Of a stretch of DNA of 64,000 nucleotides, positions 210 to 55,839 are shown in pieces (position 1 is the stretch's first letter; each line of letters begins with the position of its first letter). The notes beneath the pieces were generated by a model, which searched no databases, had not been told where the DNA came from, and worked only from the letters and a program-made list of their open reading frames with translations. The DNA comes from Escherichia coli (GTDB lineage Bacteria; Pseudomonadota; Gammaproteobacteria; Enterobacterales; Enterobacteriaceae): the NCBI RefSeq assembly GCF_011045215.1, contig NZ_CP049201.1; one strand, 5' to 3'. A program made the position numbers and the translations under genes.

Positions 210-2357
210 TTATTTTTTGCTTTCTTCTTTCAATACCTTAACGGTATAGCGGCCATCAGCCTGACGGTATGCACCGTGAATATCGGTTTCAAAGCCCGGA
301 TAGTGAGCGCCGATTTCACACAGCATCTGCAGGAACTCCAGAACCGGACGGCTTTCTTCGGTGATCATTTCACCCGGCATTACCAGAGGAACTCCCGGCG
401 GATATGGAAGGATCATATTGGCGTTAATACGACCTACCATTTCGTCGAGGTAAACTTCTTCGATCATACCGTGCAGCTCTTTCTGGAACGCAGCATACGG
501 AGTCATTACCATTGTCGGCAGCACTTCAAATGCGCGATACATCAGATCCGGCAGATTGTGGTGAACAATCCGTTTGTGGATATTCTGAGCCAGTTCCTGA
601 ATACGCATGTTTTCATAGAATTCAGGATCTTCACGATACAGAGACGGCAGCATGTTTTTCACACGCAGGTTCAGGTCGAACGCACGTTTGAAGTCAGTCA
701 GAGCACGCAGCAGGCTCAGTGCTTTGGTCTTATCGATACCGATGCTGAACAGGAACAGCAGGTTATACGGACCGGTTTTCTCAACAACGATGCCATGTTC
801 GTCGAGGTATTTCGCCACGATGCTGGCCGGAATACCAAAGTCGCTCATGGTGCCGTCTTTTTCCATCCCCGGAGTCAGCAGGGTGACTTTGATCGGGTCA
901 AGATACATGTGCTCGTTATCGATGTTTTTGAAGCCGTGCCAGGTGCTGTCAGAACGCAGCGGCCAGCATTCAGTCGTATCGATATGATCCGGCTGCCAAA
1001 CATCAAAGAACCAGCCATCAGATTCCGTTCTCAGACGTTTGATCTCTTTACGGAATTTGATCGCACGTTCAATGGAACCGTTGATCAGACGCTTACCAGC
1101 ATTACCTTTCATCATCGCCGCAGCGGTTTCAGTGGACGCCACGATACCGTAGTGTGGAGAAGTGGTGGTGTGCATCATGTAGGCTTCGTTAAAGGTTTCT
1201 TCGTTTACGTCACCTTTAACGTGGATCATGGAAGCCTGAGAGAACGCCGCCAGCAGTTTGTGAGTAGACTGGGTTTCGTAAATCACTTTCCCTTCTACAC
1301 GGCCACCGCTCATACCGCATTTACCTTCGTAAATCGGTGAGAAGTTGGTGTAAGGCACCCACGCGGAGTCAAAGTGGATGGATTTCACATCCAGTGTTTT
1401 CTTGATGAAGTCGGTGTTGTACAGCAGACCATCATAGGTAGAGTTAGTAATTACAGCATGTACCGGCCAGGTTGCGTTTGGTGTTTCCTTCACGCGCTTA
1501 GCAATGGTAGCGTGCTGGAATTCACTCTGTGGGATACCACCAAGAATACCGTAAGCGTTACGGGTCGGGCGGAAATAGATTGGCGTAACATCGCTCATCA
1601 TCATCAGGTGGGTCAGCGATTTGTGGCAGTTACGGTCAATCAGAATGGTGCTGCCTGCTGGAGCAGAGTACATACCAACAATTTTGTTCGCAGTGGAAGT
1701 ACCGTTGGTCACCATGTAGCTGCGGTCTGCGTTAAAGACGCGAGCGATATACTGTTCTGCTTCTTTGTGTGGACCACTGTGATCCAGCAGAGAACCCAGT
1801 TCAGATACTGAAATGGAAATATCAGATTTCATGGTATTCGGACCAAAGAAATCATAGAACAGGCTACCTACCGGGCTTTTCTGGAATGCAGTACCGCCCA
1901 TGTGACCAGGAGTACAGAAAGTATATTTACCTTCACGAACATATTTAAACAGTGCTTTAGTCAGCGGAGGCAGAATAGTGTTGATATATTCGTCAGTGGT
2001 CTGCTTGATCTTGTTAGCAATATCTTCAGCAGCACCTAGCGCATATTCAAAGAAGCTAATCTGTAAACGCAGGTCATTCAGGCTTACATCGAGAGTGGAA
2101 TACGTATTAGCGAACGCGTACAACGGCAGGTTCTCGTTCATTTTGCTAATTTCTTCGCACAGCTCGAGATTATATTTATCCCAGTCAAAAATAACGCCGC
2201 ACAGACGCGCATTGTTTTCGATCAGTTTTAATAAGTCGTCACGGTCGTTCGGGTAAACAATCTGGAAGTTCAGACGTTCAAGCGCGCGATGAAGTTCACG
2301 GATGGGTTCTTCTTTAAAATAAACCCCCATGTGATTCAATATTGCAATAACGTTCAT
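210..2357 (-). CDS. cadA: inducible lysine decarboxylase CadA (PLP-dependent)
   Basis: 715-aa ORF whose N-terminus MNVIAILNHMGVYFKEEPIRELHRALERLNF and overall sequence I recognise as E. coli CadA. GGAG sits 8 nt upstream of the ATG at 2357; the ORF-track start at 2396 is an upstream in-frame ATG adding 13 aa. Confidence 0.93.
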   Translation of the reverse strand: MNVIAILNHMGVYFKEEPIRELHRALERLNFQIVYPNDRDDLLKLIENNARLCGVIFDWDKYNLELCEEISKMNENLPLYAFANTYSTLDVSLNDLRLQISFFEYALGAAEDIANKIKQTTDEYINTILPPLTKALFKYVREGKYTFCTPGHMGGTAFQKSPVGSLFYDFFGPNTMKSDISISVSELGSLLDHSGPHKEAEQYIARVFNADRSYMVTNGTSTANKIVGMYSAPAGSTILIDRNCHKSLTHLMMMSDVTPIYFRPTRNAYGILGGIPQSEFQHATIAKRVKETPNATWPVHAVITNSTYDGLLYNTDFIKKTLDVKSIHFDSAWVPYTNFSPIYEGKCGMSGGRVEGKVIYETQSTHKLLAAFSQASMIHVKGDVNEETFNEAYMMHTTTSPHYGIVASTETAAAMMKGNAGKRLINGSIERAIKFRKEIKRLRTESDGWFFDVWQPDHIDTTECWPLRSDSTWHGFKNIDNEHMYLDPIKVTLLTPGMEKDGTMSDFGIPASIVAKYLDEHGIVVEKTGPYNLLFLFSIGIDKTKALSLLRALTDFKRAFDLNLRVKNMLPSLYREDPEFYENMRIQELAQNIHKRIVHHNLPDLMYRAFEVLPTMVMTPYAAFQKELHGMIEEVYLDEMVGRINANMILPYPPGVPLVMPGEMITEESRPVLEFLQMLCEIGAHYPGFETDIHGAYRQADGRYTVKVLKEESKK

Positions 2358-5675: not shown

Positions 5676-6254
5676 AATAGAAACTCATTCGAAAAGGGAA
5701 TGATGCAATGATAATTGCCACAACCTATTTTTACCATCTATAGATGGGTTTATTTACATATTATTGGTGAATGCAAGACGTTATTTTTACCAGCCATAAA
5801 CTTCTTGATTACATGGTATTAAGAAAGGATTTTACTGAGAACCAGAAGTAATATTCCTTACCATCAAAATTCATCATCTTTGCCAAAGAAAAATGTTCAG
5901 AAAATAATCCATGGAAAATTGTCCGGAGCGCTTACTATTTTAATGGATTGTTAGTCTTTGCATGAGCAAGCGGACTGATACATTTCTCTTTGTTCTCATT
6001 CAGAAAATCTCATCAGTCGCCGTTCAGACCGGTGTTGTGCTTTATGGATGCGTTACGCTCCTGATGACGTCATTTGACGTTCAACAGCATCACGGGGTCG
6101 CACGACATTTCACGTCAGTTAGTGCTATAGCTCAGGAACAAATTTTCCCGAATTGGGATATGCCCGCAAATTGCTGGTGATGTGGGGAGAATCTGGTTGA
6201 GTTCGGTAGAATTGATTTGGCGGCAGAACGCTTAAATCGTGGCGTCCTGAAACG

Positions 6255-22248: not shown

Positions 22249-22312
22249 TTCCGGGTTGACTTTCCATGGATGTGTTTTAAAAATAACCGGGCTTATTTGC
22301 TGCATCTGCAGC

Positions 22313-22496
22313 CAGCCAATGTTTCAGCAGTCTGAGAGAAACGCCTTCGGGTGACTGCCAGCCAACGTTTCACCGGCCTGAGAGAAACACCTTCGGGTGG
22401 CCGGAATATCCTCGTAGCCTGAAAGAGGATGCCTGTGGGCGGTACATCCGTTTAACCTCTGGAAACGGATATCACTGTTCAGTGATTGAGGTCTTT
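22313..22496 (+). ncRNA. structured repeat element R1 (two pseudoknot-like units plus terminal hairpin domain); candidate sRNA or single-strand structural element
   Basis: Units CCAGCCAAyGTTTCa-stem-TGAGAGAAACrCCTTCGGGTG-stem, then ..GGTACATCCGTTTAACCTCTGGAAACGGATATCACTGTTCAGTGATTGAGGTC followed by TTTTT. Homologous to R2 and R3 with compensatory stem changes. Confidence 0.45.
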
Positions 22497-22614
22497 TTAC
22501 TTCTCAGACAGCCGGAATTCAGCTGATCCGGCATCCCCGACGGGAACATTCACTTCCGTCAGGGATGGTGATGTTCTCCGTCATCACATTTTTTAACTCC
22601 ATGGAGAAATCATC

Positions 22615-23070
22615 ATGTCTGTAAATACTGCTAAAACTGAATACTTTAATCTGACCCTGAAAGGTCTGGGGTATCTCAGTAATGTACGTCAGGTGAATCA
22701 CCAGAACGGCTCGTTTCTCAGCTGTGTGGTGAATGCGCTGAGCGGACCCACGGACAGCCCGTCCTACGTCCGTTTTGATGTCACGGTTGCCGGTAAAGAG
22801 GCGACTGCCCTGATTGCCCGCTGCCAGAAGGCGGTGGATGAAGATCGCAAGGTGCTGCTTGGCTTCACGCTGAGCAACCTGTCCACTGACATCTTCACTC
22901 TGAACAAGGGAGAGCATGCCGGTGAACAACGCGTCAGCCTGAAGGCCCGCCTGATCAAGGTGGACTGGATCAAGATAGGCCAGGAGATGGTTTACAAGGC
23001 TGAAAAATCAGACTCCCAGCCGCCGCAAAACGGCACCATGCAACAGCAATACGCAGAAAACTCTTTCTGA
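22615..23070 (+). CDS. conserved ICE protein upstream of ssb (151 aa; DUF3577-like)
   Basis: GGAG RBS; position between topB and ssb is typical for this ICE family. Family name is from memory. Confidence 0.55.
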   Translation: MSVNTAKTEYFNLTLKGLGYLSNVRQVNHQNGSFLSCVVNALSGPTDSPSYVRFDVTVAGKEATALIARCQKAVDEDRKVLLGFTLSNLSTDIFTLNKGEHAGEQRVSLKARLIKVDWIKIGQEMVYKAEKSDSQPPQNGTMQQQYAENSF

Positions 23071-52772: not shown

Positions 52773-52914
52773 ATAATTAATTTGTATCTACAGAATATTA
52801 ATGCTCAGGCTGGTTAACCCCGGCCTTTTTATTTTATATACAGACGTTCCTGTGAGACTATTGACATATAAAAGCCCGTCTTGCTAATCTTTTCCCGCTT
52901 TAATGTCGCTGTAT

Positions 52915-53101
52915 GCGACCATCCAAATCCCCAGTAGTCTGAGAGGGGAGCCTTCGGGCGGCTACCAGCCAATGCTTTAACGATCTGAGAGAAGCGCCTT
53001 CGGGTGATCGTAATGTTCTCGTAGCCTGGAAGAGAACGCCTTACGTGGCGGTACATCCGTTTAACCTCTGGGAACGGATATCACGGAACCGTGATTGAGG
53101 T
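52915..53101 (+). ncRNA. structured repeat element R2 (homolog of R1 and R3)
   Basis: Same unit architecture as R1 with compensatory stem substitutions (TCCCC/GGGGA in place of GTTTC/GAAAC; ACGATC/GATCGT in place of GCAGTC/GACTGC) and the conserved 3' domain GGTACATCCGTTTAACCTCTGGGAACGGATATCACGGAACCGTGATTGAGGTC. Confidence 0.45.
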
Positions 53102-53763
53102 CGTGCTGGCCTGAGGCCAGTTGTTCTATGCAGGCATCCTGCAGATGCCATGATTCTTTACTTACAGGCTTATCACGCCTGCATATCAATACGTTAAGTC
53201 TTTCAGAGACATGTCTGAACGAACTGACGTCTTTAATCTGTTCGGGCATTCGCCCCGGGCTTCTTACGACTGTACGCACTGCATAAGGCCATCTGAAATC
53301 TGGCCGCTTGCGTGCGTATGTGGAGTTTGAAGCTGCGCGGCGTCACTTTTGTCGGCGTGTAACGATGACAAAGTGACGCATGCGCGTCTGCTTTACGAAC
53401 CCGCACAAACCGTCGCGTCACGGGATGTTTTTTAACATTTGAAGAAGTGACCAGACGTGAGAGTGTTTTTTCAACCTTCTCTGCAAACGTACAGACGATA
53501 CCGTGAATAACGTTCATCGACCGTTCTTCTTGCAGAATTTTATTGTTTTTTAAGGAGTTTTATGTAGTGAGATGCCGAACCGGCGATACCACTTATTAGG
53601 GGTGGTATCGGGGGCGACCTGGAAACAGGTACAGCGAATGCTGCAGTCGGTGTGCAACACCGGTTTGTTACCCCTCAATACCTAAACAGTCTGCGCTACC
53701 CTGGCGCTCAGGCACTCATTACCCGAAGGATCGCAACGCTTAACCGTGTCGCCAGGGAGAATG

Positions 53764-53812
53764 CAGATGAATTTTGCTGTTGTGTTCACGGCACAACAGC
53801 AAAATTCATCTG
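53764..53812. promoter_or_regulatory. perfect 21-7-21 palindrome upstream of the recombinase gene (candidate operator or recombination site)
   Basis: CAGATGAATTTTGCTGTTGTG-ttcacgg-CACAACAGCAAAATTCATCTG, followed directly by the 14-bp palindrome GCTGTACGTACAGC at 53812-53825, 25 bp upstream of the GAGGAGG RBS. Confidence 0.5.
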
Positions 53813-53850
53813 CTGTACGTACAGCTGTTTAAGACAAAGAGGAGGTATCT

Positions 53851-54753
53851 GTGTCCAGACGTGAAAAATTACTGAAACAGGATTTGGTTGCTCATATCCG
53901 GAAAGACCGGGGGAGTTTCAAGAAGCTGAGTGACTATTCCCGGATCATGCACCGGTTTGCGGAAAGACTGGCTAAACTGAATATACAGATCAGTTCTGCT
54001 GCGCAGGTAAAAGTGCGGCATATTGAATTATATATGAACAGCAGGAGTGATGTTTCAAAGCGAACCAGAGAAAATGAAATGTCTGCAATACGGGTTATGT
54101 TACGTCAGGCCGGTAAACATAAAATGGCAGATCCTGAACATCCCCGTCTCAGCAATAAGGCGTTAGGTATTTCAGGAGGAAGCCGTAAAGGGACAAAGAA
54201 ATTAATTACGGATGAGCGTTTCCGGGAAATTCTTCAGCGCGTGGAAGCAAAAGATAAAGGGGTGGCAGCTGTTGTTAAACTGTCACGTTATCTCGGTCTG
54301 AGAAATGAAGAAGCTGTCCAGTCGGCCAAATCGTTACGGACGTGGAAAAAAGCGTTACAACGGGGAGATGAAAAAATAAGGGTGATTTTTGGTACGAAAG
54401 GGGGACGGGAAAGAATGACGACGGTTGTTGACCGGGATAAAGTTCTTGATGCTGTTAATTACGCACTCAAATATGCCAGTGAGCATAATGAACGTCTGAT
54501 AGACAGAGATAATCTTAAGTCGGCAATGGATTATTATCTTAATACGTTACGACGTTATGGAGAACTGAAAGGCGGAGATGAAACCGCACACAGTTTTCGG
54601 TACAGTTACGCCGCAAGTGCCATGAAATATCATATTATGAATGGTTACAGTTATAAGGAGGCACTTGCACTGACATCAATTGATCTTGGTCATGGTGATG
54701 GCAGAGGTCGATATATTGAACAGGTTTATTGTCAGTTATTAGGCTATGAGTAA
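53851..54753 (+). CDS. tyrosine site-specific recombinase (phage-integrase/Xer-like catalytic domain)
   Basis: GTG start with GAGGAGG RBS. Catalytic-domain boxes: LSRYLGLRNEEAVQ (box I Arg), HSFRYSYAASAM (H-x-x-R), GHGDGRGRYIEQVY (catalytic Tyr). Confidence 0.65.
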   Translation: MSRREKLLKQDLVAHIRKDRGSFKKLSDYSRIMHRFAERLAKLNIQISSAAQVKVRHIELYMNSRSDVSKRTRENEMSAIRVMLRQAGKHKMADPEHPRLSNKALGISGGSRKGTKKLITDERFREILQRVEAKDKGVAAVVKLSRYLGLRNEEAVQSAKSLRTWKKALQRGDEKIRVIFGTKGGRERMTTVVDRDKVLDAVNYALKYASEHNERLIDRDNLKSAMDYYLNTLRRYGELKGGDETAHSFRYSYAASAMKYHIMNGYSYKEALALTSIDLGHGDGRGRYIEQVYCQLLGYE

Positions 54754-54785: not shown

Positions 54786-55109
54786 ATGGATTGTACTATT
54801 TTAATGAAAATAATCTCTGTAAAGGAGATTACAAAAGATTCGCCTTTGTGGTCACACTACCTGGTGCGATATATTGATTCCGGATATCAGGCTGAGTTTG
54901 AATGTGAAGGAACAGCAGATAAATGGGGCATCTATGATGAATGGGACATCTGTGAGTCGATTGCGGATTATTTTGACGTGGTGGGAGATTTTGACTGTGA
55001 TGTCAGACGGACGGGAAGAATAATACTGATGAAAGGTACCTGTGTTTTTCCTCCAGGAGAACCGGTTAAGGGAACACATAATATTCCTTTTTGGATCGAT
55101 GTTGAATAG
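54786..55109 (+). CDS. small strongly acidic protein (107 aa); candidate DNA-mimic or anti-restriction-like protein
   Basis: Very high Asp/Glu content (for example DEWDICESIADYFDVVGDFDCD); AT-rich codon usage. Confidence 0.4.
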   Translation: MDCTILMKIISVKEITKDSPLWSHYLVRYIDSGYQAEFECEGTADKWGIYDEWDICESIADYFDVVGDFDCDVRRTGRIILMKGTCVFPPGEPVKGTHNIPFWIDVE

Positions 55110-55157
55110 CTTGACATCCATCTTTTGTGCCTTAAAAATATACAGGCTAACTTTGTT

Positions 55158-55414
55158 ACCTTCGGGTGACCATCCAATGTTTCGGTAGTCTGAGAGAAAC
55201 GCCTTCGGGTGACTACAGTTATCTTCGGATAACCATCCAAATCCCCGGTAGTCTGAGAGGGGAGCCTTCGGGCGACTACCAGCCAATGCTTTGACGATCT
55301 GAGAAAAGCGCCTTCGGGTGATCGTAATGTCTCCGTAGCCTGAAAGGGGACGCCTTAGAGGGTGGTACATCCGTTTAACCTCTGGAAACGGATATCACGG
55401 AACAGTGATCGAGG
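55158..55414 (+). ncRNA. structured repeat element R3 (three units plus terminal domain)
   Basis: Largest copy: a partial unit, then GTAGTC/GACTAC, GGTAGTC/GACTACC and ACGATC/GATCGT units, and the conserved 3' domain ending ..GATCGAGGTC followed by TTTTAT. Confidence 0.45.
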
Positions 55415-55488
55415 TCTTTTATACTTAACCCGTGCGGGAGATACATTCCCGTATGGTGATTGTATCTCCGGTTTTACTGTGGAGGTAC

Positions 55489-55839
55489 ATGATGCCGTTA
55501 TCTTCTTTTGTTCAGGAGTTGCTGGCTCCCTGGTATTCTTTTCGTTCTGTCTGTTGGCGCATTTTTGTGGCTTTTCCGCAACTGCGGGCAACTGTATTGC
55601 GTACCCGCTGGTATCTGTCGTTGACAGGACAACGAGAATATTGCCCCAATGTCTGGTTTGATGGCAGTGTGTACCATTGTGCTGTGTTGGTGCGGGAGTG
55701 TCATGATGCCCGTAAATCAGTACCAAAGGTGCAGTACTATATCCCTGGATACTTTTCTTCATATCGTTCAGCATACCGGACAGCCAGGAGAACGGCGATT
55801 GCGCTGGCGACGATAAAAGTGTCGTGCAGGGCTGTCTGA
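55489..55839 (+). CDS. hypothetical basic protein (116 aa)
   Basis: GGAGG RBS; first gene downstream of R3. Confidence 0.4.
   Translation: MMPLSSFVQELLAPWYSFRSVCWRIFVAFPQLRATVLRTRWYLSLTGQREYCPNVWFDGSVYHCAVLVRECHDARKSVPKVQYYIPGYFSSYRSAYRTARRTAIALATIKVSCRAV

Follow-up and report, generated by a model that had tools for sequence, protein, structure and literature searches.

The STAXI motif, published in 2010, is a tandemly repeated pseudoknot that lies beside genes for Ssb, topoisomerase, antirestriction protein and integrase, and its name is drawn from Ssbp, Topoisomerase, Antirestriction and XerDC Integrase (Weinberg et al., Genome Biol 11:R31; PMC2864571). Its discoverers raised the possibility of a role as single-stranded DNA, judged RNA the likelier form because of the UUCG tetraloops, and graded the motif 'n' for switch (PMC2864571). 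The alignment that they deposited comprises a 5′ hairpin, three units and three pseudoknot helices, with nothing annotated 3′ of unit 3, and Rfam, in which the family is RF01728, types it as 'Gene; sRNA' (small RNA). In this study, we analysed a 64,000-nucleotide stretch of Escherichia coli DNA (contig NZ_CP049201.1 of assembly GCF_011045215.1; hereafter, the window) that carries three copies of a structured repeat, and we asked how these copies compare with the published motif and what they might do.

Three copies of a described motif

A preliminary description of this DNA had reported one repeated element at three loci on the same strand (22313-22496, 52915-53101 and 55158-55414) and had not recognised it as a known family. 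We found the element at all three, on the + strand and with nearly the same coordinates; the limits used here are 22299-22492, 52905-53101 and 55155-55415, and we refer to the copies as R1, R2 and R3. The family, however, is a known one. When the whole window was scanned with Rfam 15 at the curated thresholds, RF01728 was the match for all three loci on the + strand, and every copy exceeded the gathering threshold of 40.5 bits (Table 1). The three repeats are almost certainly copies of the STAXI RNA motif, and because the family and its pseudoknot fold have already been described, neither is new. A match to a known non-coding RNA family was among the outcomes that the preliminary description had listed as speaking against it; this match removes the novelty of the element and leaves its reality intact.

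The window and the published motif share the 5′ hairpin, the tandem pseudoknot units with UUCG mini-hairpins and the Enterobacterales hosts, and ssb, topB, antirestriction and integrase-like genes are the neighbours in loci of the window type as well as in the published ones. The arrangement in Pectobacterium atrosepticum is also similar, where the island likewise has three copies and the distance from copy 2 to copy 3 is about 2.2 kb (published alignment positions 648493 and 650761). In contrast, the published consensus and the Rfam model end after unit 3 and include no terminal pseudoknot, fixed promoter or G-free tract. What we add to the published consensus, namely the terminal knot, the positioned promoter, the G-free tract, a leader that locks the Shine-Dalgarno (SD) sequence and a mini-plasmid, amounts to modest additions.

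Each unit (about 47 nt) begins with the linker CCAGCCAAUG, the 5′ arm of stem S1 (5 nt), one free base and the 5′ arm of stem S2 (6 nt), and continues with the loop UGAGA, the 3′ arm of S1, the mini-hairpin GCC-UUCG-GGU and the 3′ arm of S2. The interleaving of S1 and S2 makes the unit an H-type pseudoknot, in which a hairpin is embedded and the three 3′ strands adjoin without an unpaired base. Short conserved single-stranded linkers (CCAAUG) join the units. R1 and R2 each consist of three units and a terminal knot, and R3 consists of four units, an extra small UUCG hairpin and a terminal knot. The stem sequences listed in the preliminary description were all verified (GCAGTC/GACTGC, CCGGCC/GGCCGG, GTAGTC/GACTAC and ACGATC/GATCGT for the first stem; GTTTC/GAAAC, TCCCC/GGGGA, GCTTT/GAAGC and GCTTT/AAAGC for the other), as were the CC-UUCG-GG mini-hairpin, the ATCCGTTT/AAACGGAT hairpin, the ATCAC../..GTGAT hairpin and the T-runs 3′ of R1 and R3.

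Some further features of the arrays were noted. The sequence UCUCAGAC (22502-22517), just 3′ of R1, is complementary to GUCUGAGA of unit 1 (22322-22337). A pairing between CAGAC 3′ of the array and GUCUG in the units was considered and dropped; it was seen in R1, and the motif was found by eye in about half of the leaders, without covariation. Two antisense open reading frames (ORFs), at 52829-53056 (- strand, 75 aa) and 54852-55370 (- strand, 172 aa), cross STAXI copies 2 and 3. Their peptide repeats (SRPKAPLSDY) stem from the repeated DNA units, and we regard these frames as repeat artefacts, not genes.

Table 1. Coordinates of STAXI-related features in the window and in plasmid NZ_CP059920.1
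Feature	Position	Strand	Remarks
Copy 1, σ70-type promoter	22256..22284	+	TTGACT, 17 nt spacer, AAAAAT; promoter scan
Copy 1, Rfam match to STAXI	22298-22448	+	135.2 bits, E 4.7e-29
Copy 1, 5′ hairpin GCTGC-ATCT-GCAGC	22299..22312	+	Rfam alignment; few nt past the predicted transcription start
Copy 1, units	22321-22358, 22367-22404, variant 22409-22445	+	Linkers CCAGCCAAyG; both stems covary
Copy 1, terminal pseudoknot	22446..22492	+	H1 ATCCGTTT/AAACGGAT; ACCTC loop pairs with GAGGT past H2 ATCACTG/CAGTGAT; G-poor, T-rich tract next
Copy 1, leader (not STAXI proper)	22535..22617	+	P1 hairpin; anti-SD paired with SD and start codon of STY4534-family gene
Copy 2, σ70-type promoter	52861..52890	+	TTGACA, 18 nt spacer, TAATCT
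Copy 2, Rfam match to STAXI	52904-53057	+	109.7 bits, E 1.2e-22
Copy 2, STAXI	52905..53101	+	5′ hairpin 52905-52919; units 52928-52965, 52974-53011, 53016-53054; terminal pseudoknot 53055-53101
EFASI RNA motif (RF02957)	53564..53721	+	55 bits (threshold 51.2); typical place between STAXI and integrase-like gene
Copy 3, σ70-type promoter	55111..55139	+	TTGACA, 17 nt spacer, AAAAAT
Copy 3, Rfam match to STAXI	55154-55279	+	85.8 bits, E 1.2e-16; partial alignment
Copy 3, STAXI	55155..55415	+	5′ hairpin 55155-55170; unit 55179-55216; extra UUCG hairpin 55218-55233; units 55242-55279, 55288-55325, 55330-55368; terminal pseudoknot 55369-55415
Copy 3, leader	55429..55491	+	P1 hairpin; anti-SD TGTATCTCC paired with SD GGAGGTACA of 116-aa ORF; inverted repeat
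Terminal-domain model matches	22444-22501, 53053-53110, 55367-55424	+	
NZ_CP059920.1, STAXI	3063-2866	-	
NZ_CP059920.1, EFASI	2383-2261	-	
NZ_CP059920.1, rep	839-1813	+	

The fold is maintained across homologs

Homologs were collected from one genome per species of the GTDB set with a pattern that specified the loops only and left all stem positions free. The scan returned 52 loci, 50 of them in Enterobacterales or close relatives and two, in a Methanoperedens and an Oleispira metagenome-assembled genome, that are chance matches in unrelated lineages. We rejected the latter two, which show no STAXI architecture and on which the terminal-knot model described below is silent, and left them out of the unit and terminal-domain analyses. 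The loci and the window together provided 76 distinct units with the canonical loops; 59 of these, with the linker AA in register, were used for the pairing analysis.

Among the 59 units, 97.7% of the cells predicted to pair do so, versus 83.7 ± 0.6% in shuffles, and pairing falls to 49% or less when the partner columns are slid by 1-3 positions. The pseudoknot helix is 99.3% paired and shows double changes at all 5 of its pairs, and the nested helix is 95.2% paired with both-sided changes at all 6. Overall, double (compensatory) changes were found in 11 of the 14 pairs, and the observed values were reached by 0 of 500 shuffles. The mini-hairpin is invariant save for one base pair, which is G-U in 46 units, G-C in 8, A-U in 5 and A-C in none. 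The invariant nucleotides of STAXI units are those of the loop UGAGA and of UUCG; in the latter loop, T34, T35 and G37 are invariant, C36 is present in 72 of the 76 units and the closing C-G pair in 71. Both the pseudoknot that the preliminary description had proposed for each unit from the interleaved stems, and the selection on the fold that it had suggested, are borne out by this larger alignment, in which both stems covary, and the selection acts on one strand. G-U makes up 83 of the 826 cells, compared with a total of 19 for all non-standard cells, which identifies the + strand, with the sense of the genes, as the one that folds.

The 3′ end of the array

The 3′ domain had been described as two co-varying hairpins. 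The hairpins are there and do covary, but the domain is actually a knot, in which the loop of the first hairpin (H1) pairs with the tail past the second (H2). Across loci, the H1 loop (ACCUC in the window) is complementary to the 5 nt located 3′ of the second hairpin (GAGGU), and the loop and tail change together (ACCUU:AAGGU, AUCUU:AAGAU, UUCUU:AAGAA, CCCU:AGGG, GCCUU:AAGGC). A covariance model of the terminal domain, built from 32 sequences with the two nested hairpins only and with the loop-tail helix left un-modelled, gave 59 matches in the 53 sources searched, three of them in the window. When these matches were aligned, covariation was seen in 7 of the 8 pairs of H1 and in 5 of the 6 of H2. 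Pairing in the loop-tail helix reached 93.3%, and 4 of its 5 pairs had changed on both sides (C-G 42 with U-A 7 and U-A 43 with C-G 7 are examples). The order of the strands, namely the 5′ strand of H1, the 5′ strand of the knot, the 3′ strand of H1, hairpin H2 and the 3′ strand of the knot, gives the same topology as that of the repeat unit. Therefore, we read the terminal domain as a divergent terminal unit. It lies beyond the RF01728 model, whose matches stop at 22448 and 53057, and is missing from the published consensus; scans with permissive E-values found no other Rfam family for the 3′ domain or for the leaders.

The 10-12 nt located 3′ of the terminal knot are nearly free of G (4.6% versus a background of 25.6%) and have UU at fixed positions in 50 distinct homologs. 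The consensus of this tract, which lies at 22493-22505 and 55416-55428 in the window, is about NCAYUUYAAC. Weak termination, cleavage by RNase E and the landing of a protein or the ribosome are all possible functions of this tract.

Start and end of the transcript

Each copy in the window is preceded by a σ70-type promoter (Table 1). Among 54 distinct elements, 85% have a promoter score of at least 8 of 12, versus 16% of random windows, and in about 43 of the 54 the -10 box ends approximately 9-12 nt before the 5′ hairpin. Most exceptions in promoter position are elements with an inserted hairpin that shifts the reference point. Given this fixed position of the -10 box, the RNA should start a few nucleotides before the first hairpin. 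Transcripts have been reported by others. In P. atrosepticum, strand-specific RNA-seq listed three STAXI transcripts (PMC4710047), and both STAXI and EFASI, a second RNA motif named for being 'frequently around STAXI and integrases', were detected in E. coli vesicles by quantitative reverse-transcription PCR (PMC12370729). On the grounds of these transcripts, the positioned promoter, the C(UUCG)G loops and the preferred G-U pair, we conclude that STAXI very probably functions as RNA.

No canonical terminator was called at the 3′ end of any of the three window copies; terminator-like hairpins sit further downstream, within the leaders. Because the 3′ ends lack a canonical terminator, the arrays are likely to be the 5′ parts of operon mRNAs.

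Short-distance genes and their leader

Between the array and those ORFs that lie a short distance downstream, there is a conserved leader that consists of a GC-rich hairpin (P1), an anti-SD/spacer segment, a U-run, and the SD sequence with the start codon. P1 follows the pattern CCCnnCGGGAA..TTCCCGnnGGG, and the anti-SD segment covaries with the SD and spacer. The leader is common to unrelated ORFs, belonging to the STY4534 family, a 100-122-aa family and a 93-aa family, and we also found it in thirteen further loci, among others. Because MAFFT aligned the leaders with too many gaps for pairs to be counted, per-sequence duplex energies were used instead. In the minimum-energy structures of 16 folded leaders, the SD and often the AUG were locked in a long hairpin in all 16, and the anti-SD:SD duplex was 1-5.5 standard deviations better than that formed with shuffled SD segments. 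In these predicted structures, the short-distance genes look translationally closed by default. In several loci, an SD-like copy in the first hairpin can pair with the anti-SD instead, which gives a terminator-like stem. The leader could be the expression platform of a riboswitch, and its coupling to the array is not evident.

Island neighbours and relatives elsewhere

Judged by its sequence, the window is an integrative conjugative element (ICE) of the SPI-7 type. It is about 97% identical to E. coli chromosomal islands whose annotated SPI-7-type ICE genes, all on one strand, are parA, dnaB-PI, parB, STY4528, PFL_4669, topoisomerase III, STY4534, ssb, TIGR037xx transfer genes and traG. R1 sits between topB and a gene of the STY4534 family (22615-23070; NF040584, 196 bits), which is followed by ssb. 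R2 precedes EFASI and then a 300-aa integrase-domain gene (53851-54753), and R3 precedes a 116-aa ORF (55489-55839) and then a series of small genes, of which DUF1281 and a methylase are the last. Two strong hairpins are located in the 740 nt of untranslated DNA that separate R2 from the integrase-domain gene. The first, at 53336-53385, is an inverted repeat (GCGCGGCGTCACTTT..AAAGTGACGCATGCGC) that recurs in other integrase-type loci and on the small plasmid described below; the second, at 53764-53814, is perfect, with a stem of about 22 bp, and ends about 20 nt before the SD.

The downstream ORF is co-oriented with the array in every related locus in which an ORF with a ribosome-binding site could be called. 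The families of these ORFs recur and are mutually unrelated. An integrase-like gene lies at approximately 640-740 nt in most of 15 loci (at approximately 470-490 nt in two), a member of the 100-122-aa family at approximately 90-130 nt in 11 loci, STY4534 at approximately 100-118 nt in most of 10 loci (at 81 nt in one), an Antirestrict (PF03230) gene at approximately 315 nt in 4 loci, and a member of the 93-aa family at 100 nt in 3 loci. The Antirestrict gene is the downstream neighbour in Photorhabdus loci. Literature searches found no functional data on STY4534, DUF3577 or EFASI.

Of 5,426 complete E. coli genomes, 689 have STAXI-like DNA. In most of them it is one copy, about 87% identical, that RefSeq leaves unannotated; 642 of the 698 matching records fall at 80-90% identity. 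In one genome, that of O157:H7 strain OK1, STAXI lies in the urease island (locus positions 6001-6180), likewise without annotation in RefSeq, and truncated genes for IS66-family transposases are located about 1 kb downstream. A match was found in 39 plasmid records and in none of 50,697 phage records.

Among the plasmids is NZ_CP059920.1, an E. coli plasmid of 3,140 bp that encodes one HUH-type Rep (motifs FLTLTVRN, HPHFHCLL and LKYSVKP). It carries the STAXI promoter and array, the conserved inverted repeat and EFASI, in convergent orientation with rep and with no integrase gene. This STAXI-EFASI module could work alone as RNA, or it could be a single-strand origin, a transfer site or a resolution site. 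The Rep nick site CTTGATA, sought as a guide to the displaced strand, had 0 exact matches on the plasmid and 3 matches with one mismatch, versus 5.7 expected by chance.

Discussion

What might the STAXI array do in these islands? Our preferred reading, to which we give an even chance, is a transcribed 5′ leader domain that acts in cis as a landing platform for a protein or the ribosome; that STAXI acts mainly in cis as a leader seems to us slightly short of even. In the mechanism that we propose, each copy would be transcribed from its own σ70-type promoter, and the RNA would open with the small hairpin, continue with three or four compact H-type pseudoknot units and the larger terminal pseudoknot, and end in the G-free, U-rich single-stranded tract. 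The array would then be the 5′ part of three ICE operon mRNAs, that is, STY4534-ssb, EFASI with the integrase-like gene, and the 116-aa ORF with the genes that follow it. It might form a rigid domain that resists nucleases, shields the 5′ end and presents the same surface repeatedly, and these repeated surfaces would be a multivalent landing site for one common factor, either an RNA-binding protein or the 30S subunit with S1 in a 'standby' mode. As an outcome, the three operons could be expressed jointly despite the hairpins that often lock their ribosome-binding sites. We infer the read-through into the genes, the action in cis and the nature of the binding partner. Because the loops are invariant while the stems drift and the number of units varies, the array is probably read as a surface by one factor and not through base-pairing to a target. 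The promoter-proximal position, the three copies per island before unrelated operons and the single-stranded tract at the end point in the same direction.

Are there precedents for such a leader? The HK022 put RNAs are several promoter-proximal structured RNAs in one mobile element that act on their own transcripts, and the T4 gene 32 mRNA, which encodes a single-stranded-DNA-binding protein, has a 5′ pseudoknot used for autoregulation. STAXI resembles put in being present as several promoter-proximal structured RNAs per mobile element, and it resembles gene 32 in that a single-stranded-DNA-binding protein would be encoded on an mRNA with a 5′ pseudoknot; however, neither put nor the gene 32 pseudoknot is similar to STAXI in sequence or fold. 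The nearest parallel with a known mechanism is the tisB mRNA, in which a 5′ pseudoknot and a single-stranded site approximately 100 nt before the sequestered ribosome-binding site are required for S1/30S standby (Romilly et al. 2020; PMC7708055). The SD-sequestered STAXI loci resemble tisB +42 in that a pseudoknot near the 5′ end and a single-stranded tract lie about 100 nt upstream of a sequestered ribosome-binding site. From sequence alone, this standby-type layout is present in the STY4534, 122-aa and 93-aa classes and absent in the integrase class. In contrast to STAXI, tisB has a single knot and not an array, with no sequence similarity to STAXI, and STAXI also precedes genes that are 300-740 nt away and have an unsequestered SD.

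Several observations weigh against the leader platform. First, in the integrase-type loci, the SD is not sequestered and the ORF is 640-740 nt away; because this ORF is distant and its SD open, standby is not the general role. Second, the 3.1-kb rolling-circle-type plasmid carries STAXI and EFASI with no co-oriented downstream gene, which fits a trans-acting RNA or a DNA-level role better. Third, a short U-run follows the last knot in R1 and R3, and published work treats STAXI as a discrete sRNA. Fourth, the minimum free energy of the whole element did not differ significantly from that of shuffled sequences (z of -0.39 and -0.09 on the + strand and -0.35 on the - strand), knots being outside the folding model. 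The case for the fold is evolutionary, resting on covariation, and not thermodynamic.

A serious rival, although on balance an unlikely one, is that STAXI is a stand-alone trans-acting RNA of approximately 200-270 nt, which the G-poor tract would free, through either weak termination or processing. With its identical knots, such an RNA would titrate a protein or serve as a scaffold for it, in the style of the CsrB/RsmZ or 6S sponges, or would act as a decoy for a host factor while the ICE becomes established. Modular repeats of variable number, with invariant UGAGA and UUCG loops and free stem sequences, are typical of protein sponges, and the U-runs and the gene-less plasmid copy just mentioned, the reports of STAXI as an sRNA in RNA-seq (PMC4710047) and in vesicles (PMC12370729), and the Rfam type all agree with such an RNA. 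The 3′ ends of the window copies argue otherwise, in that no canonical intrinsic terminator was called there, and in most homologs the array is followed only by YUUYA. The strict co-orientation with, and fixed spacing to, the downstream ORFs likewise favours a role in cis, and the sponge has so far no candidate partner protein.

Could the element instead work as DNA? ICEBs1 and rolling-circle plasmids share homologous single-strand origins, and CTG, which is invariant in every STAXI unit according to the column counts, is the preferred start site of DnaG. Both points count for a role in which the + strand would fold when it is unwound or displaced and would serve as a single-strand origin, a primosome site or a DNA-protein site; the RNA and the non-template strand are identical in sequence. 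The neighbouring genes for Ssb, topoisomerase III, replication proteins and an integrase-like protein also suit this role, as does the occurrence of the STAXI-EFASI module both in ICEs and on a small HUH-Rep plasmid that needs a single-strand origin. We nevertheless consider it improbable. C(UUCG)G is specially stable in RNA and not in DNA (PMC2864571), one pair shows a strong preference for G-U (46 of 59 units), and the fold starts a few nucleotides past a positioned promoter. Moreover, the folding strand is the mRNA-sense strand, which is not the strand transferred in the leading regions of plasmids, if the rule reported for these (PMC11541004) holds here. Frpo and ssi elements are similar in that they are repeated non-coding elements before establishment genes of conjugative elements, of the ssb, antirestriction and methylase types (PMC11541004). 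Frpo, however, is a long DNA hairpin that rebuilds the -35 and -10 boxes on the transferred strand (PMC11541004), whereas the STAXI promoter is an ordinary duplex upstream of a fold that forms on the mRNA-sense strand with G-U pairs. We found no Frpo-like inverted repeat over the promoter regions. A promoter of the Frpo type, active as single-stranded DNA, is therefore ruled out, as the promoter has no covering inverted repeat and the fold is on the mRNA-sense strand.

We give marginally less credence still to processive antitermination like that of HK022 put RNA or EAR, in which the array, as a promoter-proximal RNA, would modify RNA polymerase in cis and carry transcription past the terminator-like hairpins of the leaders and through the long ICE operons. 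Such a mechanism would suit an element in which several copies each follow a promoter directly and precede terminator-like hairpins with U-runs, and in which all ICE genes share one strand; however, STAXI, the only Rfam match, has no sequence or structural similarity to put or EAR, the number of units varies, and the leader hairpins are already explained as SD-sequestering structures. Finally, the array resembles the type III antitoxin RNAs ToxI, CptI and TenpI (of ToxIN, CptIN and TenpIN) in its layout of a promoter, tandem pseudoknot repeats and a terminator-like hairpin ahead of an ORF of 100-180 aa that would be the toxin, but this reading fails and we give it almost no weight, because those repeats are near-identical and are cut by the toxin, whereas STAXI units share only their loops and differ in their stems within an array (R1 units 1 and 2 are about 76% identical), the downstream ORFs are of unrelated families that include an ICE replication protein and an antirestriction protein, and, in a PADLOC scan of 8 downstream proteins, no family was matched and no endoribonuclease of the ToxN/AbiQ/CptN/TenpN type was detected.

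Returning to the leader platform, we can only tentatively suggest its boldest form, namely that the array is a previously unrecognised kind of 5′ leader, a multivalent platform that jointly switches on three translationally locked operons with which the island establishes itself and replicates; this stronger claim we hold to be doubtful. Its factor could be 30S/S1 in standby, or an RNA-binding protein of the ICE or host such as an SSB-like protein. If true, STAXI would do at the level of RNA what single-stranded DNA promoters do for the same classes of genes in the leading regions of plasmids.

STAXI has been an orphan motif since 2010, and it lies ahead of ssb, replication, antirestriction and recombinase genes, which serve the replication and entry of the island. 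The terminal knot, the fixed promoter, the shared leader and the mini-plasmid provide concrete experimental handles on its function. In hosts such as Salmonella Typhi, E. coli, Pectobacterium and Photorhabdus, SPI-7-type islands are carriers of virulence and resistance genes, and the mechanism of STAXI would show how these islands time the expression of their ssb, replication, antirestriction and recombinase genes.

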